Below, in pieces: positions 6,763-29,001 of a stretch of DNA of 64,000 bases (within the stretch, counting starts at the first letter, position 1; every line of letters begins with the position of its first letter). Made by a program: the position numbers and the translations under genes. This DNA comes from Planctomycetota bacterium (GTDB lineage Bacteria > Planctomycetota > UBA1135 > UBA2386): contig BJHM01000008.1 of NCBI GenBank assembly GCA_014192625.1, positions 66,944-130,943 on the forward strand, in the 5' to 3' direction. Under the pieces are notes generated by a model. The model worked only from the letters and a program-made list of their open reading frames with translations. It was not told the origin of the DNA and searched no databases.

Positions 6763-7180
6763 CCAGCCAATCTGCGCGCTTTTCTCGACCAAACCTGAGC
6801 AATAAAAATTGCTCGGCAACCTTTGCGAAACTGTGCCGAACGATCCTGGGGGCGGTGTCCTACCTGCCGATAAAAAAATCATAGCCTTTGGGGTTGCGAC
6901 CCTCCTTCGCACACCATAGATAGTCGTTCTCTCGGTAGTGACCGTGGGGCGCAAAACTTCACAAGTCACTGGCGAGACCGGCAAAGAGTGAACAACTCGA
7001 TGCCTGAAATGCGCCTGCAAAAGGGCTTTCATGTCGTGCCTGCTTCCATGACCCGGTCAGGTCTTGCGAATGTCAGGTTTTGGAAGGAACAGTCAGTAGC
7101 AGTCTACGGTCAAGACGTGCGCAGGTTTTCGCAGCGCCATTAGTGGGTGCTGCGTGGTCTTTGCACGGCATCAACGGCAG

Positions 7181-7201
7181 TTGCGAACGAAACTTTCGCA
7201 A
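7181..7201 (+). promoter_or_regulatory. stem-loop in the nrdJ 5' leader (7-bp stem TTGCGAA/TTCGCAA, 7-nt loop)
   Basis: Perfect inverted repeat read directly from the sequence, about 40 nt upstream of the nrdJ start and just before the GAGGAGGAG Shine-Dalgarno-like run at 7226-7234. Confidence 0.3.
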
Positions 7202-7240
7202 CGCGCCAAATCGGTCAGGACAAGTGAGGAGGAGCCAGCT

Positions 7241-10200
7241 GTGAAGATCCAACGTCGATTCACGAGCGCCAGCAAGTCGCCCTACGAGGGCATCCCGTTC
7301 AACAAACGCAACAGCGAGATCAAGAACCCAAACGGTTCGTTGGTTTTCGAGGCGCGTGACATCGAAGTGCCGGCGCACTGGAGTCAGGTCGCCGTCGACA
7401 TTCTCGCGCAGAAGTATTTCCGCAAGGCCGGCGTGCCGGTCCAGGAGATCCTCGCTGACGGCACCCGCAAAACGCAGCTCGACGAAAATTCCAACCCCGT
7501 GCTTGGCGGCGAGCGCGACGCGCGTCAGGTTTTTTCACGCCTCGCTGGCTGTTGGCGTACTTGGGGTGAACAGCATGGCTACTTTGATGCGGTTACAGAC
7601 GCACAGGCGTTCGAAGACGAACTCAGCCACATGCTCGCCGCGCAGCATGCTGCGCCCAACTCGCCGCAGTGGTTCAACACCGGCCTGCACCACTCCTACG
7701 GCATCACGGGCCCCTCGCAAGGGCACTGGTTTGTCGATCCACAGACCGGCAAGCTGAACAAGAGCCGCAATGCCTACGAGCGGCCGCAGCCACATGCCTG
7801 CTTTATCCAGTCCGTCAGCGACGACCTCGTAAACGAGGGCGGCATCATGGACCTGTGGACCCGCGAAGCCCGCCTGTTCAAATATGGCTCGGGCACCGGC
7901 ACCAACTTTTCCCTGCTGCGCGGCGACAACGAGACGCTGTCGGGCGGCGGCCGTAGTTCCGGCCTCATGAGTTTCCTGCGCATCGGCGACCGCGCGGCAG
8001 GCGCGATCAAGTCGGGCGGCACCACACGCCGCGCCGCCAAGATGGTGTGCCTCGATCTGGACCACCCAGACATCGAGGCGTTCGTCTCGTGGAAGGTAGT
8101 CGAGGAACAAAAAGTTGCGGCGCTGGTCGCCGGCAGCAAACACATCCGTCAGCACATTTCTACGATCCTCGCCACTTGCAAGGTGACCGACGCGAATGGC
8201 GAATCGCGAATCGTCACTGCGCCACGTGAGAATGCAGCCCTACTGCACGCATTGACCGAAGCTCGCAACGCCAACGTCCCCGAGAACTACCTGTTCCGCG
8301 CGCTGCAATTGGCTCAGCAAGGCAACCTCAACATCGAGATGCCGGAGTTTGACACCGACTGGGACGGCGAGGCATACAGCACGGTCTCGGGCCAGAACTC
8401 GAACAACTCGGTACGCATCCCAAATGAGTTCTTCCGCGCCATTGACGAGAGCGGCAAGTGGCGACTGATTCGGCGCACCAACGGCACGGTCGCCAAAGAA
8501 CTTGAAGCCACGGACCTGTGGGACCGGATCGCCTATGCCGCTTGGGCTTGTGCAGATCCGGGTGTCCAATACGACACCACGATCAACGAGTGGCACACCT
8601 GTCCTGAGGACGGTCGCATCAATGCGAGCAACCCGTGCTCGGAATACATGTTCCTCGATGACACGGCCTGCAACCTGGCATCGATCAACCTTGTCAAGTT
8701 TCACAACGCCGACGGCAGCTTTGACATCGACGCCTTCAGGCACGCCACCCGGTTGTGGACCGTGGTGCTCGAAATCAGCGTGCTGATGGCGAGTTTCCCA
8801 AGCCAGGCAATCGCCAAGAAGAGCTACGAGTTCCGCACCCTCGGACTCGGCTTTGCAAACCTCGGCACCTTGCTGATGCGCTCGGGCATTCCGTATGCCT
8901 CGCCAAAGGCCTACGCCATCGCTGCTGCGATCAGCGCGATTCTGTGTGGCGAGTCGTATGCCACCTCAGCGGAGATGTCGAAGGAGCTTGGACCGTTCCC
9001 TGGTTTTGAGAAGAACCGCGAATCAATGCTGCGGGTCATGCGCAACCACCGCCGCGCCGCCTACTGCGCCAGCGCGACTGAATACGAGGGCCTCAGCATC
9101 ACGCCAACCGGGATCGACGCGCAGCAATGCCCCAAGGACTTGCTGGAGTCAGCTCGCAGCGCGTGGGACCGCGCGCTCACGCTCGGCGAGCAATACGGCT
9201 ATCGCAATGCCCAGACGACCGTCATCGCGCCGACCGGCACGATCGGCCTCTTGATGGACTGCGATACGACCGGTGTTGAGCCCGACTTTGCGCTCGTGAA
9301 GTTCAAGAAGCTGGCCGGCGGCGGCTACTTCAAGATCGTCAACCAAAGTCTGCCTTCCGCACTAAAGAAGCTAGGTTACTCACCGGCCCAGATTGACGGC
9401 ATCGTCAGCTACGTGATCGGCCGCAAAACGCTCGCTGGCGCGCCAAGTATCAACCACGAAACGCTTGGCAAGAAGGGCTTCGACGATGCCGCATTGCAAC
9501 GTGTCGAAGAATCACTGAAGGGTGCCTTCGAACTGGCCTACGCGTTCAACAAGCACGTGCTCGGCGAGAGTTTCCTGCGCGACCGCCTCTTGCTCACCGA
9601 CGCGCAGATCAACGACTGGAACTTCGACTTGCTGAAGCACCTCGGGTTCCTAAAGAGCGATGTCCAAGCCGCCAGCGACTACGTCTGCGGCACGATGACG
9701 ATCGAAGGTGCGCCACAGCTAAAGGACGCGCACCTGCCGGTCTTTGACTGCGCCAATCGCTGTGGCCGCATCGGCAAGCGCTACATCCCGTTCCCAGCGC
9801 ACATCCACATGATGGCCGCGGTCCAGCCGTTTATCAGCGGTGCGATCAGCAAGACCATCAACATGCCAAATGATGCCTCGATCGACGACGCCAAACAGGC
9901 CTACCGACTGGGCTGGACGTCAATGCTGAAGGCCGTCGCGCTCTACCGCGACGGCAGCAAGTTGAGCCAGCCACTTGGCACCAGCATGATCGAACTCGAC
10001 AGCGCCACGCCAGCAGCGACGGTGCAAACCCAAGCGATTGCGCAGCGCATCACCGAGCGCGTGGTGCACCGGTATCTCGCCAAGCGCCGCAGGCTGCCCA
10101 ACCGCCGCGCCGGCTACACCCAGAAAGCGGTCGTCGGCGGCCACAAGATCTACCTGCGCACCGGTGAGTACGAAGATGGCACGCTCGGCGAGGTGTTCCT

Positions 10201-10882
10201 CGACATGCACAAGGAAGGTGCTGCGTTCCGGAGCCTGATGAACTGCTTTGCGATCGCCATTTCGCTCGGCCTGCAACACGGCGTGCCGCTCGAAGAGTTC
10301 ACGGATGCATTCGTGTTCACCCGGTTTGAGCCAAACGGCATCGTGCAGGGCCACGACCAAATCAAGATGGTCACCTCGGTGATCGACTACGTGTTCCGCG
10401 AACTTGCGGTGAGCTACCTGGGGCGCAACGACCTTTGCCAGGTGCAGAGCGAAGACCTGCGCAACACCACGACGGGCCAGAAGAGCCCGGAATACACCGA
10501 AGAGGAAGTGATCTCCGAGCAGGTGTTTGAAGGTAAGTCCCCGCCCGCCGACGTGCACGACGATCGCCACCTGCATCCGACCAGCCACGGGATCGTCCGC
10601 ACCACGGAATCGAGCGCAGACGGCGGTCATGCTCGCGGCGACGGTGTTCGCGGCGATGGTGCTCGCGGCGACAGCCATGCGCAAACCGCATCCTCTGCTA
10701 AGGCAACCGTCGAAAGCACCGGATTGGGCAAGGACAGCCGTCAGACGCGACTGAAAGTCGCCGAGGCTCGTCTGAAGGGCTACGAAGGGGATCCATGCGG
10801 CGGTTGCGGCGCCTTCACCTTGGTGCGCAACGGCACCTGCCTAAAGTGCGTGTCCTGCGGCGCGACCAGCGGCTGTAGCTAA
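7241..10882 (+). CDS. nrdJ: adenosylcobalamin-dependent ribonucleotide reductase, class II
   Basis: 1213 aa from GTG 7241, with GAGGAGGAG 7-15 nt upstream. Contains [21 protein letters not shown] and a C-terminal Cys-rich tail, [22 protein letters not shown]. Length and motif order fit long NrdJ enzymes. Confidence 0.95.
10631..10675 (+). repeat. 3 x 15-bp in-frame tandem repeat inside nrdJ (GCTCGCGGCGACGGT / GTTCGCGGCGATGGT / GCTCGCGGCGACAGC)
   Basis: Read directly from the sequence. Encodes [15 protein letters not shown] in the linker before the C-terminal Cys-rich domain. Confidence 0.9.
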
Positions 10883-10890
10883 GCAAGCCG

Positions 10891-10913
10891 CCGGTTTGCG
10901 CGCCGGTTTTTTT
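10891..10913 (+). terminator. possible weak intrinsic terminator after nrdJ
   Basis: CCGG(10891-94)/CCGG(10903-06) short stem with an 8-nt GC-rich loop, followed directly by T7 (10907-10913), 9 nt after the stop. The stem is only 4 bp plus one G-U pair. Confidence 0.25.
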
Positions 10914-10991
10914 GCGTTCCTGTCCACCCATTTTGTGGCGGACATGTTTTGCTTAGTGCGGCAAACGCAACCCGCAAAGCGCAGCTTGCCA

Positions 10992-11018: not shown

Positions 11019-11257
11019 GGACATGTCGAGGGATTCTGCTCGCTGCTCCCTGACAGTCATGCGCGGCACCACTGTGCGTAGCTGTCAGCGAAAAAACTGC
11101 GGCACAAAGCGACAGTCCTAACCAAAAGTGCGGACAACTTCAGCGGTCGACAGCGCAGCTTCGATGGCATCGACAAAAGCCAGACACCCGGGAAGAGACT
11201 TCACTGCTGTCATGATTGCAGTCGAACATGCGATTGCACCTGGGAGAAGCAACTGGC

Positions 11258-14236
11258 ATGTCGATTTATCATATAAGCGCCACATTGGCGTTGGTCATTA
11301 TCACCGCATGCGGCGGCAGCGGCAGTGGCGTAAATAGCACCACCAACGGCAACGCAACGATTGGCGGACTAACACTGTTGTCGCACACCCCAGCCGACCT
11401 GGAAATGCAGGTTGATGTGCATGCTGCGATCCAACTCATTTTTGACAAAGGGGTAGTCATCGAGAGCTTGCGCGATCAAGACACCCATCTCAGAACGGAA
11501 GACAGCGAGACCAATATTGAAGGCACGCTGAGGCTCGCCGAAAATGACCGCGCTGTCAGTTTCACACCGGTTGCGCCGTTGGCACTAGAGGCCAATTACG
11601 TGTTTCAACTTTCGGCGCTCACCTGCGACGCAGAAGGTCATTTGCTTGACACGCAATATCAATTCTCGTTCCGCACGCTCGACAACACTGCGCCAACGAT
11701 TCAAAGCTCCAATCTCACAGGCCAACAGAACCGGAGTCGCTCGACGGCGATACAGGTCACTTTTTCAGAGCCACTCGATATCGCCAGCCTGACCGCCAAC
11801 ACAGTCCAACTGATCGACACGTTTGGTCAGACCTACAACTGCCGACGTGAAATAGCGGCTAACACAATCTCGATCACACCGCAAGCAGAGCTACCTGGCG
11901 ACCGGAATTTCACGCTGACACTTGGCACCGGATTGAGAGACCTTGCCGGCAACACGCTAGCAGTGGCTTTTACGAGCAGCTTCCGAACTGATTCGGACTT
12001 CACCTCGCCTTCCGTCTTCGGCGCTTGGCCCGCAGTTGGCGCGTTGCATATCTCACCCAGCGTCGAGCCGGTGATCGAGTTCAGCGAATCCATGGACCCT
12101 GCCACCGTTGAGCCAGCCTCGGTGTTTTTCCATGACGAGTTCGGCAGCCAGGTGGCGTTCACCGTGATCGCGAACGAGAACCAGCACACTCTGCGCCTAA
12201 AGCCGTTGCAGAACCTGAGCGCCAACCGATCCTTCGAGATCACATTTTTGACGGGCATAGCGGCGGTCACCGACGTAAGCGGCAATCCACTTACTGCGAC
12301 TCAAGCGCTGTCTTTTAGCACTGGCACCGACACGACCACCCCCTGGATCGTGCAAGCACTACCCAGCAGCAACGAAAATCGCGTCAGCATCAACGTGGTG
12401 CCCCTCATCACCTTCAACGAAGCGCTCGATACGGAATGGATCGACGGTGACACGGTAGCGCTCTTCTGTGGCAACGAGCGCACTGCTGCCGTGGTCCAAC
12501 AACTGGCCAGCAACACGATCCGGCTGACGCCATTACTGAGACTTTTGCCATACAAAAGCTATCAGGTGGTGCTTTCCGGCGGCCACCAAGGCATCCGCGA
12601 TCTCGCCGGCAATGTCTTGCCGGAGGATCTAGCTTTTCCATTCGCGACCGCGAATGACAACTCGCTACCGAGCGCCATGCTGCAGCCCTACAACGGCTCC
12701 GCTGGCGTGCCCTCAACCATCCACGCGAGCATCGTCTTTGACTCGAGGATTGATCCCTCAACGGTGTCTGCAGCCACGTGCGAGTTGCGAATGGACAACG
12801 GCGTCCCAGTGGTCGCCACTGTTGCCCTCGACACTTCAAACCGCGTTATTGGCATCACACCAGCGAGTGCTTTGGTGCCTGGCTACTACTACCGCACCTT
12901 CGTGCGTGGCGGTCCACTCGGCGTGCGCGAATCATCCGGCAACTGGCTGGCGAACGATCTCAATGCGCGATTTAGGGTCGGTGCTGGAATCGACAACACG
13001 CCACCAACCGTAAACGTGCAGATCAATCGCATCGCACAGTCGCGCAGTACGGGACTGATAGTGCCAACCAGTGGATTCACGATCGACGTGACGGCATCCG
13101 ATGCCGAACAGTCGCTCGACATGGGCTCGACCAGGATTCGGTTCACTGGCAGCGGGACTGCACCATTCGCCGCAGAGCTGCTTGCCAATGCGGCAATCGG
13201 CTACAACAGCGTGCATCTAACAGTGCCACTCGAGTCGGCAATCACACGAGGCGCGTGGTCTGTGAGTGTCGAAGTAGCAGACCTATCCGGAAATCGCGGC
13301 ACGTCCCAGAGCCTGCAACTGCAGGTCGACGAACCTTCGAGCGAAGCGCTGCCATTTGAGACGACCCAGGTCGTCTGGGTTCGCACCGATCTAGATCGCG
13401 ACGGCAACGGCCGCAGCGATTTTGACGATGACCTCTATCGCATGGGCCTTGCTACCGAAGGTGACAATGCCGGCACCAACTCGCAGGTGCAGAAACTCAT
13501 GCGCGATGCGATTGTCACACGCGCCAGCAATCTATTTGGTCGCGCCGCTGATGGCGAACCGCTGGGCCCGGACTCGATCCAAGTTCGCATTACAACGCGC
13601 GCACCAGGAGCCATCAGACACATGGAGATCGCGCTCGGCGGATACGACCCGGAAGGCAATCGAAATCGTGTCTATGGCGCTACCTCGACAGGCATTCTCG
13701 GTCGCGCTTACTTCGACTACCGCAACGCGAACATGAATGACCGCAACCTGGCGACATCCCCAGGGCTCGGCGTGTTTCCTGGCGAAATGTGGCTCTATCA
13801 AGCCAAATTGCATCAGCAGCTTTATCCGTCGTTCCTAACGATGTTCGCACAACGATTCCTGCCGCTATGCCCAGCCATGGGCGGCACGCCAGCAGGATCG
13901 CACCCAGCAGACCCAGTAGTTCTGCGAGCCTCGTTCCAACCAAGCACTGCCAATAGCGAACAACTAGCGCGCTTTAACGTGTTGATGCAGGCGATCGATG
14001 ACTGGGCGATGGTAAATGGCACCGTGTTGGCACACGAAATCGGCCACAGCCTAGGACTCGTAGCTCCAGGCCCCGCACCCAACGGCCTGTTCGGAGACTC
14101 GAGTCTGCACGACGACAACGCTGGCGCAACAGAAGTCATGGCGGCATCCGTCGGCTACGAATCCATGGTGACATTGAGTTACGCATTCCGTGACATCGAG
14201 CTTGCCTATCTGCGGCAGAGGTTGATTCTTCGATGA
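11258..14236 (+). CDS. large lipoprotein with repeated Ig-like (SbsA/Big_5-type) domains and a C-terminal HExxH zinc-metalloprotease-like module
   Basis: ATG 11258 gives MSIYHISATLALVIITACGG (signal peptide plus lipobox). At least five ~100-aa repeats have similar cores: IQLIFDKGV, IQVTFSEPLDIASLT, IEFSESMDPATVE, ITFNEALDTEW, IVFDSRIDPSTVS. HEIGHSLGL lies near the C-terminus. Confidence 0.7.
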   Translation: MSIYHISATLALVIITACGGSGSGVNSTTNGNATIGGLTLLSHTPADLEMQVDVHAAIQLIFDKGVVIESLRDQDTHLRTEDSETNIEGTLRLAENDRAVSFTPVAPLALEANYVFQLSALTCDAEGHLLDTQYQFSFRTLDNTAPTIQSSNLTGQQNRSRSTAIQVTFSEPLDIASLTANTVQLIDTFGQTYNCRREIAANTISITPQAELPGDRNFTLTLGTGLRDLAGNTLAVAFTSSFRTDSDFTSPSVFGAWPAVGALHISPSVEPVIEFSESMDPATVEPASVFFHDEFGSQVAFTVIANENQHTLRLKPLQNLSANRSFEITFLTGIAAVTDVSGNPLTATQALSFSTGTDTTTPWIVQALPSSNENRVSINVVPLITFNEALDTEWIDGDTVALFCGNERTAAVVQQLASNTIRLTPLLRLLPYKSYQVVLSGGHQGIRDLAGNVLPEDLAFPFATANDNSLPSAMLQPYNGSAGVPSTIHASIVFDSRIDPSTVSAATCELRMDNGVPVVATVALDTSNRVIGITPASALVPGYYYRTFVRGGPLGVRESSGNWLANDLNARFRVGAGIDNTPPTVNVQINRIAQSRSTGLIVPTSGFTIDVTASDAEQSLDMGSTRIRFTGSGTAPFAAELLANAAIGYNSVHLTVPLESAITRGAWSVSVEVADLSGNRGTSQSLQLQVDEPSSEALPFETTQVVWVRTDLDRDGNGRSDFDDDLYRMGLATEGDNAGTNSQVQKLMRDAIVTRASNLFGRAADGEPLGPDSIQVRITTRAPGAIRHMEIALGGYDPEGNRNRVYGATSTGILGRAYFDYRNANMNDRNLATSPGLGVFPGEMWLYQAKLHQQLYPSFLTMFAQRFLPLCPAMGGTPAGSHPADPVVLRASFQPSTANSEQLARFNVLMQAIDDWAMVNGTVLAHEIGHSLGLVAPGPAPNGLFGDSSLHDDNAGATEVMAASVGYESMVTLSYAFRDIELAYLRQRLILR

Positions 14237-15222
14237 AAATATTGCTCGCTAGTTTTTTGCTTTCTGCAGCATCGGCACTGCCCGCTCAGCAGCAGGCCAC
14301 AACACTTTTCACGCTGGCAAAGAGCGCTGACGTGGTTGTCATCGCCACAGCTAACGCGGCGTCTGATCCAAGCGTTGATTTCCATCGCATAGAATTTCAC
14401 ACAGACCAGGTATTGAAAGGCTCGGCAGGTGAAAGCTTCGCGATCTTGGAGCAAGCAGGCCGATGCTGTGGACGCGCTTTGTCAGCAATGACGATCGGCG
14501 ACCAGGTGATCGCATTCCTCGACTATCGCGGCCCTGGTTTGCATCCACTTGGCGGTAGCCGAGGAATCTCACTAGCAACGCCCGAGATAGTTGCGCACGT
14601 CCGCCAGTTGCTCGCTGCACAGAACCAGAAGTCGTATGGGGAAATACTCGCCAGCGGACTAAGCAACCCGGATCAAAGAGTCCGGATCGATGCGGCCCTT
14701 GCACTTGCGGCACTGCCGTCAACAAGACTGGGTGCGACTGCAAATCAGCAAATCTTGTCAGCGCTACAGAACGAACTACAGGCGGCCTCTGCCAGCTTGC
14801 CGGCAATGATCGATGCCTCGGTTCGCTTTCTCGGCGATGCCGCGGCAACCACTCTCGTGCAATCCCTGCTGACGACAGACGATGACAACGTCTCGAACCT
14901 GATGACACGCGGCCTTGCCAGGTTGTCGGGAGACAGTGTGCACCAGAGCCTCATGGTTGCAGCGTTGCCAAACCCACTGGCGCAACAACGAGCCTGCGAA
15001 CTTGCCGCCTGCATCCCAAATGCACTGAGCTTGCCGATGCTGCGCATCCTGCTCACCCAATCGCCAAGGGTCGCCCTTGCAGCGAGCGAAGCACTGCTAG
15101 CCAACGGCGTAAGCGCAGAATCAATCGCACCATTGACAGACTCAGAAGTTCTGAAGGTCGCCATCGAGAGACATTCGCAGTTGCCTAAGCTGCGCGTAGT
15201 TGGCAAAGGAAACCGCCAGTGA
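14233..15222 (+). CDS. secreted HEAT-like repeat protein
   Basis: Signal peptide MKILLASFLLSAASALPAQQ. HEAT-like helices (PDQRVRIDAALALAALP, SPRVALAASEALLANG). ATGA overlap with the upstream stop at 14233-14236. Confidence 0.6.
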   Translation: MKILLASFLLSAASALPAQQQATTLFTLAKSADVVVIATANAASDPSVDFHRIEFHTDQVLKGSAGESFAILEQAGRCCGRALSAMTIGDQVIAFLDYRGPGLHPLGGSRGISLATPEIVAHVRQLLAAQNQKSYGEILASGLSNPDQRVRIDAALALAALPSTRLGATANQQILSALQNELQAASASLPAMIDASVRFLGDAAATTLVQSLLTTDDDNVSNLMTRGLARLSGDSVHQSLMVAALPNPLAQQRACELAACIPNALSLPMLRILLTQSPRVALAASEALLANGVSAESIAPLTDSEVLKVAIERHSQLPKLRVVGKGNRQ

Positions 15223-17312
15223 AAAACTTGGCTCAGAATTTGCCTGAACAGCTTTTTACACCACTGCAAACGGCGAAAAACCAGCCACCTGCAATCAACG
15301 ACCAACGGCGGCTGTTGCCCCTGGTAAAAAGCCGGGCCGCTGCAACCGCATTACTAAAACTTGGCATCACCACAGTTGGCCAGTTTCTTGCGACACCCTA
15401 CGAACGAGTAAGTGGCACCAGAGGATTACGGCTTCGAACCTGGCAAAAAATCGCAGACACGATCACTGCCGGTTCGCACAACCGATCCGTCGCTGGCGAC
15501 CTGCTGCCGGACAGTTTGCGCGGCATGCTTCTGCAACAATTGCAGCTACCACCAGAGCTGTTGGTGTTGCTCGAATCGCTTGGTTGCAAGTCTTTTGGTC
15601 AGGCGATGGGATTAGCCGCAAGCACCTGGAAATCCGGCGGACAGCTTGGCCCATTTGCAGCAGAAGAATTGCGCACGGCACTCGACAAAACCCTCGCGCC
15701 TGTTCTGCATGGCGACACGGCGGCGCAAATCACCAGTGAGCTCGATTGGTCAACCATCTGCGGGCGCTTGCTAGGCCCTCTCGATGAAGATGACCGCGAC
15801 CTGTTCTGCAAACGCACGGGATTTAGGACTGCCATCCGGAGTTCCAGAGAGCAGGCACAATCATCCGGCCACTCGTTGACAGAAGTGTTATTGCAAGAAG
15901 TGAAGATTCGCAGCCAACTAAAACTGCGCGCTCCTTCCATGCTTGCCAAGCTCGCAAGTGAAGCAAGGCAGGAGCTTTCTAGGCATGTTGGAGTTTTGCG
16001 CAACGATCGACTGGCTGCCGGATCTTCTTTGCACACCATCGCAGAAGCGAGTGGGGACCGTGAATTGCCGGTGCGGCTTCTCGCGTTTTTGTTCCCTGAA
16101 GAATTCTATGATCACGGTGGCTGCCTATCAGCACTGCCAGTGTCAGCAAGACTTCAATTCATGCGCGAATTGCGCGCAATGACAGCACCTCGGCTGTTGC
16201 CAAGACCGATCACCGAAATTGAAGCCAGCCTGAAGCGACTTGTGGCAGACGTGCCACGGGGACTCCTACTGCATCTGCTGGCTGATCGATTCAGACTGCA
16301 CCTGCACCGCGACGAACTACGAGGCGAAATGGTGCTGCCGCAACAACCTGAAATCGCAGCACGCATCCGTGAAATGCTGACTGATTCAGGTCGCCCGGCA
16401 CAGCTCGCAGACCTGTTGTTGGACTATCGCGAGCGCTTCCATGTTGCGAGTCGTCAGCGAATCCAATCACACCTACGGCGCGATCCATCCTTTCTCGAAA
16501 TCGGCCCGGACATCTGGAGCCTACGAGGCTGGCACGTGGATGAGTTGGCCGCTGCAAAACCGCTAGCCGAATCGGTCATTAACACCATTTGCGAACGCGG
16601 CGGTCGCCACGCAGTGAGCAAAATGGTCGAAGGCGATTATCGTCTCTGCTTCGTGGTCCTCGATCTCGTGCGCAGCGATCCACGCATCCGCAATCTTGGC
16701 CGTGGCGAAGTATGTTCGGCCGGACAAAAGCATTCGCACCTGCTAGCACAACTGCTTCATTCATTCGGCCAAGCACAAGGCGAAGTGGTCTACAGCCGAT
16801 TCATCGCCAACCAAACGCAAGACAATCGCCGCCTTGTCGAGCGCCTCTTGCATGAGAATCGAATGTTCGTATTTCCAGATTTGGACCGAATCGATTTGCT
16901 CTCGAACTACCCGTTCCATGCCCATCGCCTGGAGCGATTGTTAACAGTGGTCGACAACTACCTAAAAGAGCACGACGGCCACGCGTTGCTTAGCGAAGTA
17001 TTGGTTGAGGTGAACCGCTGCGATCTTGGTGGCAGCTGGCTAAATCCAAAGCTGCTCGGCGAGATCCTCCGCCGCCACGGCGATCACGAAGTTCTGCCAG
17101 GCGACTTCATCGCACGCGGCGAATTGGCACTCGGCAGCTGGCTTTTGCGGCGGGCACGCAATGCGCTGCGCGCGGCAAATCTGCCAATCACGGTTGGCGA
17201 AATCCTCGCTGAGCGACCTGAGCTTGCAAAGTATCGTTCATGCCTGCAACTACTCTTGCAGCGTGATCCGCTAGTGCAAACACCAGATGGAATGCACTTT
17301 CAGATCGCCTAA
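15219..17312 (+). CDS. hypothetical 697-aa cytoplasmic protein with helix-hairpin-helix and winged-helix-like repeats
   Basis: GTGA overlap with the upstream stop at 15219-15222, and no signal peptide. LKLGITTVGQFL and LESLGCKSFGQAMGL resemble RpoA-CTD-type HhH. FLEIGPDIWSLRGW resembles a HARE-HTH. The function call is weak. Confidence 0.55.
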   Translation: MKNLAQNLPEQLFTPLQTAKNQPPAINDQRRLLPLVKSRAAATALLKLGITTVGQFLATPYERVSGTRGLRLRTWQKIADTITAGSHNRSVAGDLLPDSLRGMLLQQLQLPPELLVLLESLGCKSFGQAMGLAASTWKSGGQLGPFAAEELRTALDKTLAPVLHGDTAAQITSELDWSTICGRLLGPLDEDDRDLFCKRTGFRTAIRSSREQAQSSGHSLTEVLLQEVKIRSQLKLRAPSMLAKLASEARQELSRHVGVLRNDRLAAGSSLHTIAEASGDRELPVRLLAFLFPEEFYDHGGCLSALPVSARLQFMRELRAMTAPRLLPRPITEIEASLKRLVADVPRGLLLHLLADRFRLHLHRDELRGEMVLPQQPEIAARIREMLTDSGRPAQLADLLLDYRERFHVASRQRIQSHLRRDPSFLEIGPDIWSLRGWHVDELAAAKPLAESVINTICERGGRHAVSKMVEGDYRLCFVVLDLVRSDPRIRNLGRGEVCSAGQKHSHLLAQLLHSFGQAQGEVVYSRFIANQTQDNRRLVERLLHENRMFVFPDLDRIDLLSNYPFHAHRLERLLTVVDNYLKEHDGHALLSEVLVEVNRCDLGGSWLNPKLLGEILRRHGDHEVLPGDFIARGELALGSWLLRRARNALRAANLPITVGEILAERPELAKYRSCLQLLLQRDPLVQTPDGMHFQIA

Positions 17313-22911: not shown

Positions 22912-23049
22912 GGGTCCTGCCGTTCGCCGATGCGCCGCACAAAAGTGCGACTGTGAAGCTGATATGTCGATCCTATCGGCCGGTTGCACAAGAACTCTGA
23001 ACTCATCTGTTACGGACTTTCCGTGGCGGGCTCGCTAGGCTGTGCCGCC

Positions 23050-24066
23050 ATGGATTCTTGCACTGCTCTAAAGCACTCGTCGCGCTCGCTAATCCTCGTT
23101 TGTTTACCGCTTTTTTTACTCGCGAGCTGCGGTCATAAAGGCCCGGTCGACGGTGCGGCGGCCATGCGACACGTCGAGGCTCTCGTTGCCATCGGCCCAC
23201 GCCCCTATGGCTCTGCAGCGTTGGGCAGAGCAGCCGACTACATCTGCAATGAGGTGAAAGGGCTGCAGCTTACACCCAAGCGCCATGAAGTGATGGATGA
23301 GAAGGAGCACAAGCTCATCCGCAATCTGTATACCCAGATCGACGGCGAAGATCCGATCAACGGCCCCATCCTGATGATTGGTGCCCACTACGACACCAAA
23401 CTAACCGAAGGGCACAAAGATGCCGGGCACAACTTCCCGTTCGTTGGCGCGATCGACGGCGGCGGCGCGCCAGCTACCCTGATCGAGATCGGTCGCGCGA
23501 TCAAGAATCGCAAAGAGAAACTAACGGTCAACGTCTGGCTCTACTGGATCGATGCGGAGGAATCGATCGACTTCCAGTGGAACAAACAACGTTCCCTGAT
23601 CGGCAGCAAGGCGTTCTGCAAATGGCTCGTGGACAGCAAGGTAAAACAACGCGTCAGAGCGTTTGTGCTGCTCGACCTGATCGGCGACAGGAATATCAAG
23701 ATCGACTACGACGGAAACTCACACAAAGATCTGCAAGAGATCATCCGCGCCGCAGGCAAAGCGATCGGCGAATCAGATCGCGTCTACAAGTATTCTTCCG
23801 CCACCACCGACGACCACGAGGTGTTCCGCGACTATGCCATCCCATCGGTGCTGCTGATCGACTTCTTGCACCGGGTGCCATTTGACCGCCTGAAGGAAAT
23901 GGATCCAAAGGCCGAGGAGCAGGACCCACAGGGCTACGCGCAGTGGTGGCACACGCCTTTTGACACGATCGACAAAATGTCTGCTTCGAGCCTAGCACTT
24001 GCCGGCAACTTGGTCATGCAAGCGTTGCCCGACCTACAAAAGTTCATCCTTCAAGCAAAGCGCTGA
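23050..24066 (+). CDS. M28-family zinc peptidase / glutaminyl-cyclase-like lipoprotein (paralog 1)
   Basis: ATG 23050 gives a signal peptide with lipobox LLASC. Motifs GAHYDTK, GAIDGGGAPATL, WIDAEE. Confidence 0.75.
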   Translation: MDSCTALKHSSRSLILVCLPLFLLASCGHKGPVDGAAAMRHVEALVAIGPRPYGSAALGRAADYICNEVKGLQLTPKRHEVMDEKEHKLIRNLYTQIDGEDPINGPILMIGAHYDTKLTEGHKDAGHNFPFVGAIDGGGAPATLIEIGRAIKNRKEKLTVNVWLYWIDAEESIDFQWNKQRSLIGSKAFCKWLVDSKVKQRVRAFVLLDLIGDRNIKIDYDGNSHKDLQEIIRAAGKAIGESDRVYKYSSATTDDHEVFRDYAIPSVLLIDFLHRVPFDRLKEMDPKAEEQDPQGYAQWWHTPFDTIDKMSASSLALAGNLVMQALPDLQKFILQAKR

Positions 24067-24074
24067 CCGGTCGC

Positions 24075-25112
24075 ATGCGAAGCACCAGCCTGATTTTTGG
24101 CGCGATCGCCGTTCTTGCTGCGTGTTTTGGCGCGAGCTTGAAGAGCCGTTCTGGCGATCCTGCGAACGCGAACTACCTGCAAAAGCAGGATGCCGAAACG
24201 CCGATCGACCAGAAGAAATTGGTGGTTCTCGAGGCGGTGCGCGCGCCACAGGACCTCGGCGAACGGGCGATGGCGCACGCGAGAACGCTGGTCAACTTGG
24301 GGCCGCGGCACAGTGGCGCAGTGCCGACCGAAGGCTATAGCAAGCAACTCGACTTCATCACAGCGGAGCTCAAGCGTTCCGGGGTTAACGCCGTGCGAGA
24401 TACTTGGACCGACCGTCGCGAGTTGGTCACGTTTACCAACATCAGCGCTGTGATCCCTGGCAAGCGCAGCGAACGGATCGTGTTTTCATGTCATCACGAC
24501 ACGAAGTGCGCAAAGGGCCATAAGGACACCGAACACAACTTTGCGTTCGCCGGTGCCAATGACGGTGCCAGCGGCGTTGCGCTGCTACTCGCGCTCGCGC
24601 CAGTGCTGGTGCAAGGGAAGCATGACGCCACCATCGAATTACTGTTCTTCGACGGCGAAGAAAGTATGGATTGGGATTGGAACAACGCCGCGCGCGCGCT
24701 GTTCGGCAGCAAGCACTTCGTCGAGCAACATCGCGACGCAGAGTTGAAGAGTGGCGCACCTAAAATCGCGGCGATGCTGCTACTCGACATGGTTGGTCGC
24801 AAAGACCTGCATATTCAGGAGGAGCTGTATTCCACTGCTCGACTGCGCACGCTGGTCTTTTCTGCCGCGCACTCATGCGGCCACGCGACGCATTTTTTTC
24901 GCGGAGCAGAGGCTGCCAGTGATGATCACCGGCCGTTTCTTGATGTCGGGATTCCCTCGATCGACTTGATCGACCTCAAGGATAACCCTCACTGGCACAA
25001 GCCAACCGACACGATTGACAACCTATCTGCTGTAAGCCTGCAGATCGTGGCGGATGTGGTGCTTACCGCGCTTCCCGCCATCGAGCGCGAGTATCTACTC
25101 GATCCGCGCTAA
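24075..25112 (+). CDS. M28-family zinc peptidase / glutaminyl-cyclase-like lipoprotein (paralog 2)
   Basis: Signal peptide with AVLAAC. Motifs CHHDTK, GANDGASGVALLLAL, FFDGEE, HWHKPTD. Confidence 0.8.
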   Translation: MRSTSLIFGAIAVLAACFGASLKSRSGDPANANYLQKQDAETPIDQKKLVVLEAVRAPQDLGERAMAHARTLVNLGPRHSGAVPTEGYSKQLDFITAELKRSGVNAVRDTWTDRRELVTFTNISAVIPGKRSERIVFSCHHDTKCAKGHKDTEHNFAFAGANDGASGVALLLALAPVLVQGKHDATIELLFFDGEESMDWDWNNAARALFGSKHFVEQHRDAELKSGAPKIAAMLLLDMVGRKDLHIQEELYSTARLRTLVFSAAHSCGHATHFFRGAEAASDDHRPFLDVGIPSIDLIDLKDNPHWHKPTDTIDNLSAVSLQIVADVVLTALPAIEREYLLDPR

Positions 25113-25909: not shown

Positions 25910-28450
25910 TTAGTGACCGCTGGACAAGATCACGATTCCATTAGCGGGCACCGTGATGGAGAACGTGCGTTGCTCAGAGTCAAGTACGGTGTAAGCGGCA
26001 GCAGGCACGCCAGACAGCCGCCATCCATCCGCAGCGGTTACCAGACGAAACTGCACCGGCAGGGGACTACGCCCCGGAACAACGGCAGGCTGTAAACGCA
26101 GCATTAGCCGGCCGTCGGCCGGTCGCAGGGGCGGTGCGATTTCAATTTGGCCACCGGCGACGAGCATGAGTGGCAGAATGCGTCCGCCCACCATCACCGA
26201 CTCTGTAGCAGCTCGCGCAATGGCTCCATCTGGGCCGATCGCCAAAAACTCCTGCTCCCCCGGCAGCAGGCTTACGCGCACTGGCACGCTGTCCTGGATG
26301 CCAATGAAGCGCACGCTAGGACCATTGGCCGAGTCATTTTTTAGAGCGAACAACTCCACGTTGGCAACAAGTCGATTGCTGCCCCGGTCGATCACCAGCA
26401 ACTCTGGCGAAGTGATAGGAGTCGCAATAATTTCTTGGTAGCGGGACTCTGAGGACAACAGCACCGAGGTGCCCAAGAGGCTGCTCAGCGGACGGAACAC
26501 CGTCGCCATTTCGCGCGGCAGTTCGCTGGCATAGTTGAATATCAACGGATCCGCCTCACTGGCCGCCAGCAGGCGAATCGTCGGCTGGACCGGAGTGCCG
26601 CCGCGCAACCACAAGCGACCATTGCCCACCGACAATTCGGCTATGCGCCCCATTGAATCGGTCCCAATGCTGAGACGACGAGCACCGCAACCGCCCGGCA
26701 TCCCCGACAGTTCTTCGTAGATCTCGCAATTGCTATTGGCAGGCAAGTTCTGCAGGCCGATCCGGCGCTGACTGGCAAGGCGAACTTGCAGCCCCGTGAA
26801 GGCCTGCACTACTTGCGCGTCACCTGGCAATGGCACGAATGCGACTTGGTGCAGTTCATCGAATACGATGAGACACAGTGACTGATGCTGCTGAAGTTTG
26901 CTTGGTAGTCCGCGCAGTTCGAAATGACCGAACTGATCCGTCTGAATTGCCATGTTCAGCAGGGCTTGAATATGACCAGAAAGATTGTCGTAGAGGCACG
27001 GAACTAGACTCACGCTTACGAGTGCCCTGCCCTCAGCATCGACGACCTGCCCACTGGCCAACGCCGCAGGGTTAAAACTCACGGCGTCATTCAGGATGTG
27101 AGTTGATAATCCAGGATGCAAACGAACGGCATGCGGCACAACCAAGCCGAGGTCCTCGCGGCCCGTTGGCGGCCTTGCTTGGATGATGACCCAATCGCCC
27201 TTCAGGCCGCTACGTGCACCGAGTGCAAACAGCCCCGCTTCGTCGGTGGTCAAGTTTGCTTGACGTTTGCCACTTTCACCTAGGTAATCGACGATCAGAC
27301 TTGCCAATGGCAGCGGGGGAGAACCCACGCTTTGAATGACTGCATAGCCAACCAAGTCTGGCGCCGCTGCTGGCACTGGGTTTGGTGCCGGCTCCCCGGT
27401 GCGCGCCGCTCCTAATGTTGACCCAGACGATGCAATTGATTCGACGGTCCCACTGGCAAAACCACGGTAACTACCGACTTGCCCCATCGTCACCACGGTG
27501 TCTGGCATCCACAAACTACTGTCGCGCACGATAACCGCCGCTTCACCGGCGATGACTTCCACTTGCACCGCAGTGTCGAAAGCACCTGCGCGCAACGCGT
27601 AATCGACCGAACGTTCGGTCCATAAGTCTAAGTTATACACGCCGCTTCCGAGCAATACTCGCGAACCGTCGATGAAGCTCACGGAGAGTGCCCGCTGCGA
27701 ATGCAATTCCATCGAGCCATAGACCAGCAGAGGCATCCCACCCTGCATCTTCACTTCGCTGTGGCTGAGGACGGTCACCTGTGCTACTGGTTGTTCCAGA
27801 TTTCTGCTGCTGTCTAGGAAGTCAAAGACCGCTTTGCCATTCCGGACAATGATCCACGGGCTTTCGCCAAGTCCCTGCCCTTCTTCCAAGTCGACGATGC
27901 GATCCCCATCGTAGTAAAACGAATTCGTCGATTGCGCCACTGACCAGCGGGCGGCACTGGGCCCGATGCCAAACAGCGAACCAGTTTGCCTCTGAACAAG
28001 GATCAAGCCGCAAACGACCAGTAAAACGGCCAACGCGCAATACATCGCGTTGCGCGCCAAGTAGCTGTTCAATCGGCTTGCAGTAAAAAAGCTATGCCCC
28101 GCAGGCTTGGGACCCGAGACGGTCAAAGCAGCATCACCTCTGAGAGCCAGTTCCTGCGTCAATCGCAACATTGTGCGATGGGCAAACCCTGCCATGGGAA
28201 AAGTCGCACTATCCAGTGCAAAGGCGCTATGTAATTGCTTGCTAAAAAACTCTTTGCGACCAAGAGCAAGCGCGCAGGTGCTGCACTCATGGACATGCAG
28301 AGTCACTTCGGCCACAAGCAGTTCCGACAACTCGCCATCCACGTAGTCGCGAAGCATTGCGCGCACCTTGGCGCACTCGGGATTGGTCGGCGGATACCGG
28401 GTCAAATCCGCCGAATCGGGCGGTTCTTGCCATGGCGTTGTGCCGGTCAT
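25910..28450 (-). CDS. membrane anti-sigma factor (zf-HC2) with very large extracytoplasmic domain
   Basis: ATG 28448-28450 overlaps the sigma gene stop (ATGA). HVHECSTCALAL fits H-x3-C-x2-C. One TM segment (AMYCALAVLLVVCGLILV). About 650 extracytoplasmic residues with beta-rich, carboxypeptidase-regulatory-like stretches (GQVVDAEGRALVSVSLV). Confidence 0.75.
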   Translation of the reverse strand: MTGTTPWQEPPDSADLTRYPPTNPECAKVRAMLRDYVDGELSELLVAEVTLHVHECSTCALALGRKEFFSKQLHSAFALDSATFPMAGFAHRTMLRLTQELALRGDAALTVSGPKPAGHSFFTASRLNSYLARNAMYCALAVLLVVCGLILVQRQTGSLFGIGPSAARWSVAQSTNSFYYDGDRIVDLEEGQGLGESPWIIVRNGKAVFDFLDSSRNLEQPVAQVTVLSHSEVKMQGGMPLLVYGSMELHSQRALSVSFIDGSRVLLGSGVYNLDLWTERSVDYALRAGAFDTAVQVEVIAGEAAVIVRDSSLWMPDTVVTMGQVGSYRGFASGTVESIASSGSTLGAARTGEPAPNPVPAAAPDLVGYAVIQSVGSPPLPLASLIVDYLGESGKRQANLTTDEAGLFALGARSGLKGDWVIIQARPPTGREDLGLVVPHAVRLHPGLSTHILNDAVSFNPAALASGQVVDAEGRALVSVSLVPCLYDNLSGHIQALLNMAIQTDQFGHFELRGLPSKLQQHQSLCLIVFDELHQVAFVPLPGDAQVVQAFTGLQVRLASQRRIGLQNLPANSNCEIYEELSGMPGGCGARRLSIGTDSMGRIAELSVGNGRLWLRGGTPVQPTIRLLAASEADPLIFNYASELPREMATVFRPLSSLLGTSVLLSSESRYQEIIATPITSPELLVIDRGSNRLVANVELFALKNDSANGPSVRFIGIQDSVPVRVSLLPGEQEFLAIGPDGAIARAATESVMVGGRILPLMLVAGGQIEIAPPLRPADGRLMLRLQPAVVPGRSPLPVQFRLVTAADGWRLSGVPAAAYTVLDSEQRTFSITVPANGIVILSSGH

Positions 28451-29001
28451 GTGCCTGTCAGCCTTTGCAGGCGATGCTGAAGCAGATCCGTTGCCCGAGC
28501 GATTTGAACCTTCACACTGCTGACCGAGATCCCCAAAACAAGAGCGATCTGAGCGTGACACATGCCGCGCAGATATTTTAGTTCCATCGGCAACCTCAGC
28601 TTGGCATTCATATGAGCTAACTCATTATGAATAATATTGATATGGTTATGACTCGGATTTTCAACCGAACGTTCATCCGAGACCTGTTCGATCAAGCCCT
28701 CGGCCGCATTGTCAGTGACACCCAGCTTTGCTTCGACATGCACGCGACGTCGGCGGTCGCGGCAAACATTGCCAGCAATTTGCAGGAGCCAAGGCTCTAG
28801 TTTACGACTGACATCAAACTGGTCGCGAGCACGAAACAGCTTCAGGAACGTATCCTGTGCCGCTTCTTCTGCGTCTTCGGGACGACGCAAAATGCTCATT
28901 GCAAGTCCATAAACCATAAACTGATATCGCTTGACCAGGCTCTCAAATGCAAGCAGATCCCCTGCTTGAATTCGGACCATCAATTCGTTTTCTTCGCGCA
29001 T
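28447..29001 (-). CDS. ECF-type RNA polymerase sigma-70 family factor
   Basis: 184 aa. Region 2 (FESLVKRYQFMVYGLAMSIL, EDAEEAAQDTFLKLF, PWLLQIAGNVCRDRRR) and a region 4 HTH (MCHAQIALVLGISVSSVKVQIARA). Confidence 0.9.
   Translation of the reverse strand: MREENELMVRIQAGDLLAFESLVKRYQFMVYGLAMSILRRPEDAEEAAQDTFLKLFRARDQFDVSRKLEPWLLQIAGNVCRDRRRRVHVEAKLGVTDNAAEGLIEQVSDERSVENPSHNHINIIHNELAHMNAKLRLPMELKYLRGMCHAQIALVLGISVSSVKVQIARATDLLQHRLQRLTGT

Follow-up and report, generated by a model that had tools for sequence, protein, structure and literature searches.

Three overlapping genes form a conserved, predicted operon

We analysed a 64,000-nucleotide stretch of a Planctomycetota genome (contig BJHM01000008.1, positions 66,944 to 130,943; the window). 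It contains three adjacent genes, referred to here as genes 1, 2 and 3 or together as the trio (Table 1). The list of open reading frames (ORFs) and their translations place all three on the same strand. The end of gene 1 overlaps the start of gene 2 by 4 nucleotides (ATGA, 14233-14236; junction letters TTCGATGAAA), and gene 2 overlaps gene 3 in the same way (GTGA, 15219-15222; CCAGTGAAAA). This layout had been claimed in an earlier note made from the letters of the stretch, and the ORF list and junction letters agree with it. The same note had called gene 1 an immunoglobulin (Ig)-repeat lipoprotein with an HExxH site, which the Pfam Big_5 match, the lipobox and the HEIGH motif confirm. It had called gene 3 a helix-hairpin-helix (HhH)/winged-helix protein resembling nucleic-acid- or RNA polymerase (RNAP)-binding proteins; the AlphaFold2 (AF2) model, Foldseek and the Pfam matches of relatives point the same way. 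For gene 2, the call of a secreted helical-repeat protein stands, and its matches to the HEAT family are sub-threshold. The trio is a robust, undescribed operon whose cytoplasmic member, gene 3, is evolutionarily separable from the envelope pair, genes 1 and 2.

Both junctions are conserved. Among 29 loci, the window counted, an NTGA overlap joins genes 1 and 2 in 27 and genes 2 and 3 in 23, and the remaining junctions are gaps of 3-12 nucleotides. The trio has the conserved stop/start overlaps of a coupled operon. Its gene order is retained in every related locus with enough flanking sequence (28/28). Overlaps of 4 nucleotides are frequent in this genome, and three or more further same-strand pairs within the window share one, so two in succession are unremarkable by themselves. 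The ORF list gives gene 1 two possible starts (11216/11258..14236). The ATG at 11258, giving 992 residues, is most likely the start: a Shine-Dalgarno run (GGGAGAA) lies at 11242-11248, and the orthologous proteins start at the matching site, 'MFSIR...SAC|GGGG'. A recorded 992-residue protein has a C-terminal domain identical to that of gene 1.

The upstream neighbour, identified by Pfam, is the class II ribonucleotide reductase gene nrdJ (7154-10882), and a convergent PAP2-SpoVR-DUF444-PrkA block forms the downstream boundary. No sigma-70-like promoter was found on the plus strand within the trio, and an Rfam scan of the window returned no RNA family. None of the three proteins matches an NCBIfam model or a PADLOC anti-phage defence model. 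Their annotations are absent or generic ('hypothetical', 'Ig-like domain-containing', 'alpha C-terminal domain-containing'). Literature searches on HARE-HTH proteins with sigma factors or RNAP, on paralogues of the RNAP alpha C-terminal domain (alpha-CTD) in Planctomycetes and on Big_5 lipoproteins turned up no account of the trio. Known module types meet here in an undescribed combination, together with one domain without family assignment (the gene 1 C-terminus); this is not demonstrably a new mechanism.

Table 1. Features of the trio and its upstream region, in window coordinates.
Feature	Position	Strand	Description	Basis
Strong intrinsic terminator of upstream nrdJ	10890-10917	+	GCCGGTTTGCGCGCCGGT then TTTTTTT; 5' boundary of the trio transcription unit	
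Conserved upstream blocks	11165-11226	+	Candidate promoter/operator	13 aligned orthologous upstream regions
Block TGGCATCG	11165-11172	+		Upstream alignment
Block GAGACTTCA	11195-11203	+		Upstream alignment
Block GTCGAA	11221-11226	+	Shine-Dalgarno run after it	Upstream alignment
Gene 1	11258-14236	+	992-residue lipoprotein: signal peptide, lipobox, five Big_5 and a sixth Ig-like domain, C-terminal zincin-like domain	
C-terminal domain of gene 1	13316-14233	+	About 300 residues; calcium-binding-like loop, HEIGH, invariant His, invariant Met	
Gene 2	14233-15222	+	329-residue secreted protein: signal peptide, N-terminal domain of about 110 residues, HEAT-like repeats	
Gene 3	15219-17312	+	697-residue cytoplasmic protein: two HhH modules, sigma-region-4-like helix-turn-helix (HTH), five winged helices	
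HhH-A of gene 3	15306-15494 (residues 30-92)	+		AF2 model
HhH-B of gene 3	15495-15713 (residues 93-165)	+		AF2 model
Sigma-region-4-like HTH of gene 3	15741-15989 (residues 175-257)	+	Four to five helices	AF2 model
Five winged-helix modules of gene 3	16020-17309 (residues 268-697)	+	Each helix-helix-helix-strand-strand	AF2 model
Second winged helix of gene 3	residues 377-445	+	HARE-HTH/RpoE-delta-like	Foldseek, PDB phmmer

Gene 1 carries Ig-like domains and a zincin-like C-terminal domain

Gene 1 begins with a lipoprotein signal, MSIYHISATLALVIITAC|GGSGSG, in which a Gly-rich linker follows the cysteine. The lipobox is I-T-A-C, in agreement with the pattern [LVI][ASTVI][GAS]C, and its cysteine (Cys18) is encoded at 11309-11311. 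Most orthologues have the same ...AC|GGGG lipobox and Gly-rich linker. Pfam finds Big_5 (PF13205) in five stretches (E 5e-67; 223.6 bits vs a 23.6-bit cut-off), and a sixth Ig-like match, Big_13, is sub-threshold.

The C-terminal domain holds a calcium-binding-like loop (DLDRDGNGxxDFDDD, about 13391-13435), HEIGH (14033-14047), a His (14108-14110) and a Met (14138-14140). Across 22 aligned orthologues, with identities as low as 44%, the calcium-type loop (DxDRDxxG...DxxxD), H-E-x-x-H-x-x-G-L, the His and the Met are all invariant. This His lies 21 residues past the second His of HExxH, and the Met follows 10 residues later. The AF2 model of the domain has a predicted local distance difference test (pLDDT) score of 83 and a predicted template-modelling score of 0.87, and it places HExxH at the end of a long helix. 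No Pfam family matches the domain above cut-off. The best Pfam peptidase match, Reprolysin_4, is sub-threshold (E 0.007-0.036), as are Peptidase_M10, M43 and Zincin_1 and the matches to ADAM/MMP chains in the PDB, where the best profile match has E 0.28. All of these peptidase matches are confined to the active-site helix. A PDB sequence search with gene 1 gave chance-level matches only. Foldseek with the domain model returned nothing below E 1 (best metzincin ADAMTS4, E 1.3, template-modelling (TM) score 0.25), so the fold could not be assigned.

The domain resembles metzincins (reprolysin/ADAM M12B, matrixin M10, pappalysin M43) in its HExxHxxG on a long helix, its downstream invariant His and Met, its calcium-type loop and its extracytoplasmic location, and the weak profile matches fall on the metzincin active-site helix. 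The invariant Met is a candidate for the Met-turn residue that lies beneath the metal site of metzincins. The domain differs from them in lacking the metzincin motif HExxHxxGxxH/D: HEIGHSLGLVA carries Ala at the third-ligand position, and the conserved His stands at the distance given above. The lack of any significant Pfam, PDB or Foldseek match is a further difference. With moderate confidence we regard the domain as a putative zincin without family assignment; none of the named metzincin families includes it. As a well-conserved, confidently modelled putative zinc hydrolase, it is a candidate for a new zincin family.

Gene 2 is a secreted, fast-evolving protein

Gene 2 has a hydrophobic N-terminal leader, MKILLASFLLSAASALPA|QQQ, and its mature N-terminus, A|QQQATTL, is conserved. 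In the N-terminal domain E73 and C79-G80 (14467-14472) are invariant, within EPAGRCCGR. The helical repeats share a conserved HEAT-type signature, RVRxDAALAL, and the HEAT_2 match is sub-threshold (E 0.004; 17.7 bits vs a 27.7-bit cut-off), so that the protein does not reach the Pfam gathering threshold for HEAT or HEAT_2. Its sole PDB sequence matches are designed armadillo proteins (E 0.0035). Taken together, gene 2 is likely of helical-repeat nature. The protein evolves fast, with 26-46% identity within the family.

The mature protein is predicted to begin with Gln, and this residue, Q19, is invariant in 19 sequences. N-terminal pyroglutamate may form there. Two genes for M28-family lipoproteins lie 6-8 kb downstream (window 22984-25112).

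Gene 3 is modelled as a set of RNAP-type DNA-binding modules

Gene 3 has an isoelectric point of 9.1 and no membrane segment, with no 19-residue window of Kyte-Doolittle hydropathy 1.6 or more. Its AF2 model (pLDDT 80) consists of nucleic-acid-binding folds. The protein itself has no Pfam match. Its relatives form 16 close clusters in a set of 5.8 billion proteins and 83 representatives at E<1e-30 in a library of 1.8 billion. Pfam searches with 49 family representatives (E<=0.01) found RNA_pol_A_CTD in 29 (best 6e-26), HHH_5 in 24, HARE-HTH in 5 and Sigma70_r4 in 4. Some full-length homologues match RNA_pol_A_CTD (PF03118) well above cut-off. The best HARE-HTH (PF05066) match among relatives, at 26.2 bits, is just over the 25.9-bit cut-off, and a scan of the window's own genome gave none at the gene 3 locus.

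The modules can be compared with known proteins. The N-terminal modules are modelled with the HhH pattern and fold of the RpoA alpha-CTD, and Foldseek gives local matches to alpha-CTD structures (3gfk_B, 4mex_A and 2max; probability 0.96-0.98). The genome's own RpoA CTD aligns with the first HhH module of the gene 3 family (hhalign E 0.009), a module that is missing in this genome's copy. Unlike RpoA, gene 3 lacks the alpha N-terminal (assembly) domain, and its modules occur in tandem, their number varying between genera from 0 to 3; true rpoA lies elsewhere (C2:94374). The HTH models as sigma-70 region-4-like, several relatives pass PF04545, and Foldseek also returns chimeras of sigma-4 with the beta-flap. 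Sigma regions 2 and 3 are absent from gene 3. Sigma70_r2 matches none of the 49 family members, nor is region 2 present in the gene 3 model. As a sigma-70 factor needs region 2, for core binding and -10 recognition, together with region 4, gene 3 cannot be one.

The second winged helix matches Staphylococcus aureus RpoE delta (8x6g_E) in fold (Foldseek TM score 0.69, root-mean-square deviation 2.8 A over 77 columns, probability 1.0) and weakly in sequence (PDB phmmer, residues 386-443, E 0.4). Gene 3 differs from delta in lacking its acidic C-terminal tail and in having the domain as one of five winged helices in a much larger protein. The delta subunit is known from Firmicutes, and Planctomycetota lie outside that group. 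The best whole-chain Foldseek matches are tandem winged-helix arrays, namely UFL1 (8qfc_B, E 1e-4) and the C-terminal WH1-4 of SelB (1lva/2uwm, probability 0.99-1.0); arrays of RPC62/TFIIE type belong to the same kind. In these, strings of winged helices serve as scaffolds that bind nucleic acids or partners. The whole-chain TM scores are low (0.1-0.4), and gene 3 has no GTPase or ligase context. The likeness to SelB and UFL1 is architectural and is no evidence of a common function.

The C-terminal 300 residues of gene 3 contain invariant polar motifs specific to the family (LGRGxxC, NQ, DRIDxLxNYPF). Remote relatives lack them, and the region in common is limited to the N-terminal modules (300-390 residues). 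Two of these relatives, of 1100-1265 residues (L054:6001-9408 and L055:298-4095), share only an N-terminal arrangement of three alpha-CTD domains and Sigma70_r4, with or without HARE-HTH. One of the two neighbours genes for an integrase, a TrwB-like ATPase, an HTH_17 protein, an SNF2 helicase and an SMC-like ATPase, and the other adjoins a TGT/DpdA-like gene; both contexts are mobile- or defence-like.

HARE-HTH proteins are often sensors or readers of DNA state. Gene 3 could accordingly be, instead of a gene regulator, a sensor or reader of modified or foreign DNA that is incidental in its operon, as the occurrence of remote relatives with this domain set in mobile or defence-like islands would suggest. 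These relatives, however, share only the N-terminal region. The trio has no PADLOC match, and its locus does not resemble an island, being a syntenic chromosomal site that is core to the family. We consider this explanation very improbable.

The gene 3 family is compact, with about 80 clusters at 50% identity. It is part of a much larger uncharacterised class in which RNAP alpha-CTD and sigma-4 modules recur in proteins other than RpoA and sigma factors. In the same genome, a protein of up to 462 residues (C17:8906-9382, minus strand) carries two alpha-CTD domains with strong matches (E 3e-23 and 5e-17), so that, beside true rpoA, the genome holds several non-RpoA alpha-CTD proteins. The function of one such alpha-CTD/sigma-4 protein would inform transcription biology, and Planctomycetota have few genetic tools.

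Conserved DNA lies upstream of gene 1

Across the 13 aligned orthologous regions, which come from different genera, the three upstream blocks show little or no variation. The 8-mer TGGCATCG is found in 13 of 20 loci, vs a maximum of 8 in shuffles. Within this genome the composite motif has 3 matches, vs 6-9 in shuffles; a regulon-wide promoter of the extracytoplasmic function (ECF) type was rejected on this count. Since the rest of the genome shows no enrichment of the composite motif, the blocks are specific to this locus. They are compatible with a dedicated regulator, which they do not identify.

Two other readings of this region were rejected. As a conserved 5' leader RNA it gave only 3 pairs in RNAalifold (-1.3 kcal/mol), and a sigma-54 reading of TGGCATCG failed by eye on the GG-N10-GC spacing.

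Freshwater metatranscriptome assemblies from two separate studies contain contigs that match parts of all three genes at 95-100% identity and low depth. None of these contigs spans 14233 or 15219, and carry-over of DNA is possible. One contig (run X1; window 11117-11453) begins no later than 11117, ahead of all three blocks. Should it stem from RNA, transcription would start further upstream or read through from nrdJ.

Genes 1 and 2 also occur without gene 3

All relatives of the trio come from metagenome-assembled genomes of uncultured Planctomycetota, mostly from freshwater. The earlier note had treated the three genes as a unit, and they do co-occur outside this genome, across the window's family (f1) as a whole. 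Whole-genome searches found a single copy of gene 3 in 39 of 43 sampled genomes of f1 and in 3/3 of a second family (f3); other families of the order have no full-length gene 3. Gene structure, domain composition, conservation of order and overlap, and phyletic pattern are all direct observations.

The flanks of the trio vary. An amidohydrolase gene is sometimes inserted between nrdJ and gene 1. Downstream, PAP2-SpoVR follows in most loci, and MarR-GNAT/AspRS or other insertions are found in some.

In three other families (f7, f8 and f4), gene 1 is directly followed by gene 2 without gene 3; profile searches found the next genes or ORFs to be unrelated or to have no gene 3 match. A second possible pair is present in the window's own genome (C12:10153-12949). 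It encodes a 599-residue lipoprotein with Ig-like domains and the same C-terminal domain (HECGHSMGL...H...M), followed 1 nucleotide past its stop by a 331-residue secreted helical-repeat protein, and no gene 3-like gene comes after it. Judged from these sequences, genes 1 and 2 are the older pair.

In f3, a 270-residue gene divergent from gene 3 lies between genes 2 and 3 (L050:5403-6215, minus strand; L048:2372-3181). This makes gene 3 a transcription unit of its own in f3. The two copies of the 270-residue protein are 91% identical and have an anti-sigma zf-HC2 motif (HxxxCxxC), one transmembrane segment and an extracytoplasmic tail of about 160 residues.

This protein bears on the proposal in the earlier note that the trio is a surface-sensing or proteolysis-linked transcription control system. 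In such a pathway the gene 1 protease and gene 2 would sense or process an outside cue, and the signal would reach gene 3, a sigma-4/alpha-CTD mimic that would rewire RNAP. Gene 3 would dock on RNAP or promoter DNA in place of canonical modules, the surface metallopeptidase pair would set its level or activity, and in some lineages the route would pass through the anti-sigma-like membrane protein. If true, this Planctomycetota family would link proteolysis at the envelope to a modular RNAP appropriator that is not a sigma factor. The conservation of a protease-like envelope protein and an RNAP-module protein in one coupled operon speaks for such a route, and the zf-HC2 protein of f3 is the kind of link that it needs.

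The link is missing in the window's family, however. The trio has no transmembrane segment beyond its two signal peptides, and no homologue of the f3 zf-HC2 protein was found in this genome. Like ECF sigma/anti-sigma (zf-HC2) signalling, the trio has an envelope protease-like gene in the operon of gene 3, and in f3 a zf-HC2 membrane neighbour; it differs in having neither an anti-sigma factor nor a site-2 protease, and without a membrane-spanning link it is not an ECF-type module. Gene 3 cannot act as a sigma factor, and the pair functions without gene 3 elsewhere. The proposal thus finds no support, and the separation of gene 3 in f3 and its stand-alone occurrence in a distant lineage also disfavour a proteolysis-linked reading. 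We judge a new pathway from the envelope to RNAP to be improbable.

Gene 3 as a possible dedicated regulator or a passenger gene

The explanation we favour, tentatively and at somewhat less than even confidence, is that the trio arose when an envelope metallopeptidase pair gained a cytoplasmic regulator of its own. The earlier note had offered an envelope system with its own regulator as an alternative, and this fits better than signalling, although it is still inference. Gene 1 would be a membrane-anchored lipoprotein in which a stalk of five to six Ig-like domains bears a Ca/Zn metallopeptidase-like head (HExxH..G..H..M). Gene 2 would be a secreted partner with helical repeats, on which ribosomes re-initiate at the stop codon of gene 1, and it probably binds or controls this head. 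The common ancestor of two families would have recruited gene 3 next to this pair, and in the window's family the gene would then have become part of the operon. Gene 3 most likely encodes a DNA-binding regulator dedicated to this locus, which may also contact RNAP and would act on the conserved upstream blocks; a physical association with the secreted proteins is unlikely. We infer peptidase activity for gene 1, an interaction between genes 1 and 2, and DNA binding and autoregulation by gene 3.

Several observations support a dedicated regulator. The order of the three genes is constant while the flanks vary, and the 4-nucleotide overlaps, the lipobox and the catalytic-type residues of gene 1 are conserved. 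Gene 3 is single-copy in f1 and f3, while the pair also occurs without it. Gene 3 has RNAP-type domains, no transmembrane segment and a basic isoelectric point, and DNA blocks specific to the locus lie upstream of gene 1. Finally, fragments of all three genes are present in metatranscriptome assemblies.

Other observations weigh against this explanation. The neighbourhood from nrdJ to PAP2-SpoVR-DUF444-PrkA is itself fairly syntenic, so adjacency alone is weak evidence. GTCGAT, the most deeply conserved upstream block, also precedes gene 1 in families without gene 3, and the GGGACTTCA block is confined to f1 and absent from f3, which has gene 3. Binding of gene 3 to the upstream blocks or to RNAP is a prediction. 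The peptidase assignment of gene 1 comes from a motif and sub-threshold matches, and Foldseek gave no significant match despite a confident model. Homology between gene 2 and the secreted partner on C12 is marginal, the two being colinear with a non-significant hhalign E of 0.06.

Gene 3 is also reduced in two genomes. In G014 (L052, G014:C65, 2807-3571) it is a 254-residue protein with HhH modules only, still overlapping gene 2 by 4 nucleotides. In G009 (L053, G009:C220, 3143-4651) it is a 503-residue open frame without the HhH modules and the last 70 or so profile positions, in which an earlier search had reported an in-frame TAG. These truncations indicate that the full protein is dispensable for genes 1 and 2. 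In a distant lineage, a full-length homologue (18% identity) is a solitary gene, flanked by an H+-PPase gene and by a peroxiredoxin gene that has its own terminator.

In the main rival explanation, gene 3 has no functional tie to genes 1 and 2 and serves the family as a general factor of the chromosome or of transcription. It would have hitch-hiked in a stable syntenic block, with overlaps that arose by operon compaction and persist because they are hard to undo. The pair without gene 3 in three other families and the similarly arranged pair in this genome are as expected of a passenger, as are the separate unit in f3, the solitary distant homologue, the syntenic flanking genes and the ordinary nature of 4-nucleotide overlaps here. 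Gene 3 also looks like a housekeeping gene, being single-copy and near-universal in the family. On the other hand, it adjoins genes 1 and 2 in both families that have it, despite differing flanks or separate transcription. Its overlap persists although gene 2 has diverged widely, and even the truncated G014 copy retains it. We consider hitch-hiking unlikely on balance, while giving it more weight than any other competing explanation.

Neighbouring genes

Two further genes near the trio or its orthologues were recorded. An 883-residue protein is encoded on the minus strand 8.6 kb downstream of gene 3 (window 25910-28561), with an N-terminal zf-HC2 motif, one transmembrane segment and a large extracytoplasmic domain. 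In one relative (L003:1-3805), the barrel domain of the ribonucleotide reductase encoded upstream of the trio is interrupted by an intein that contains a LAGLIDADG endonuclease; the gene is the nrdJ orthologue.

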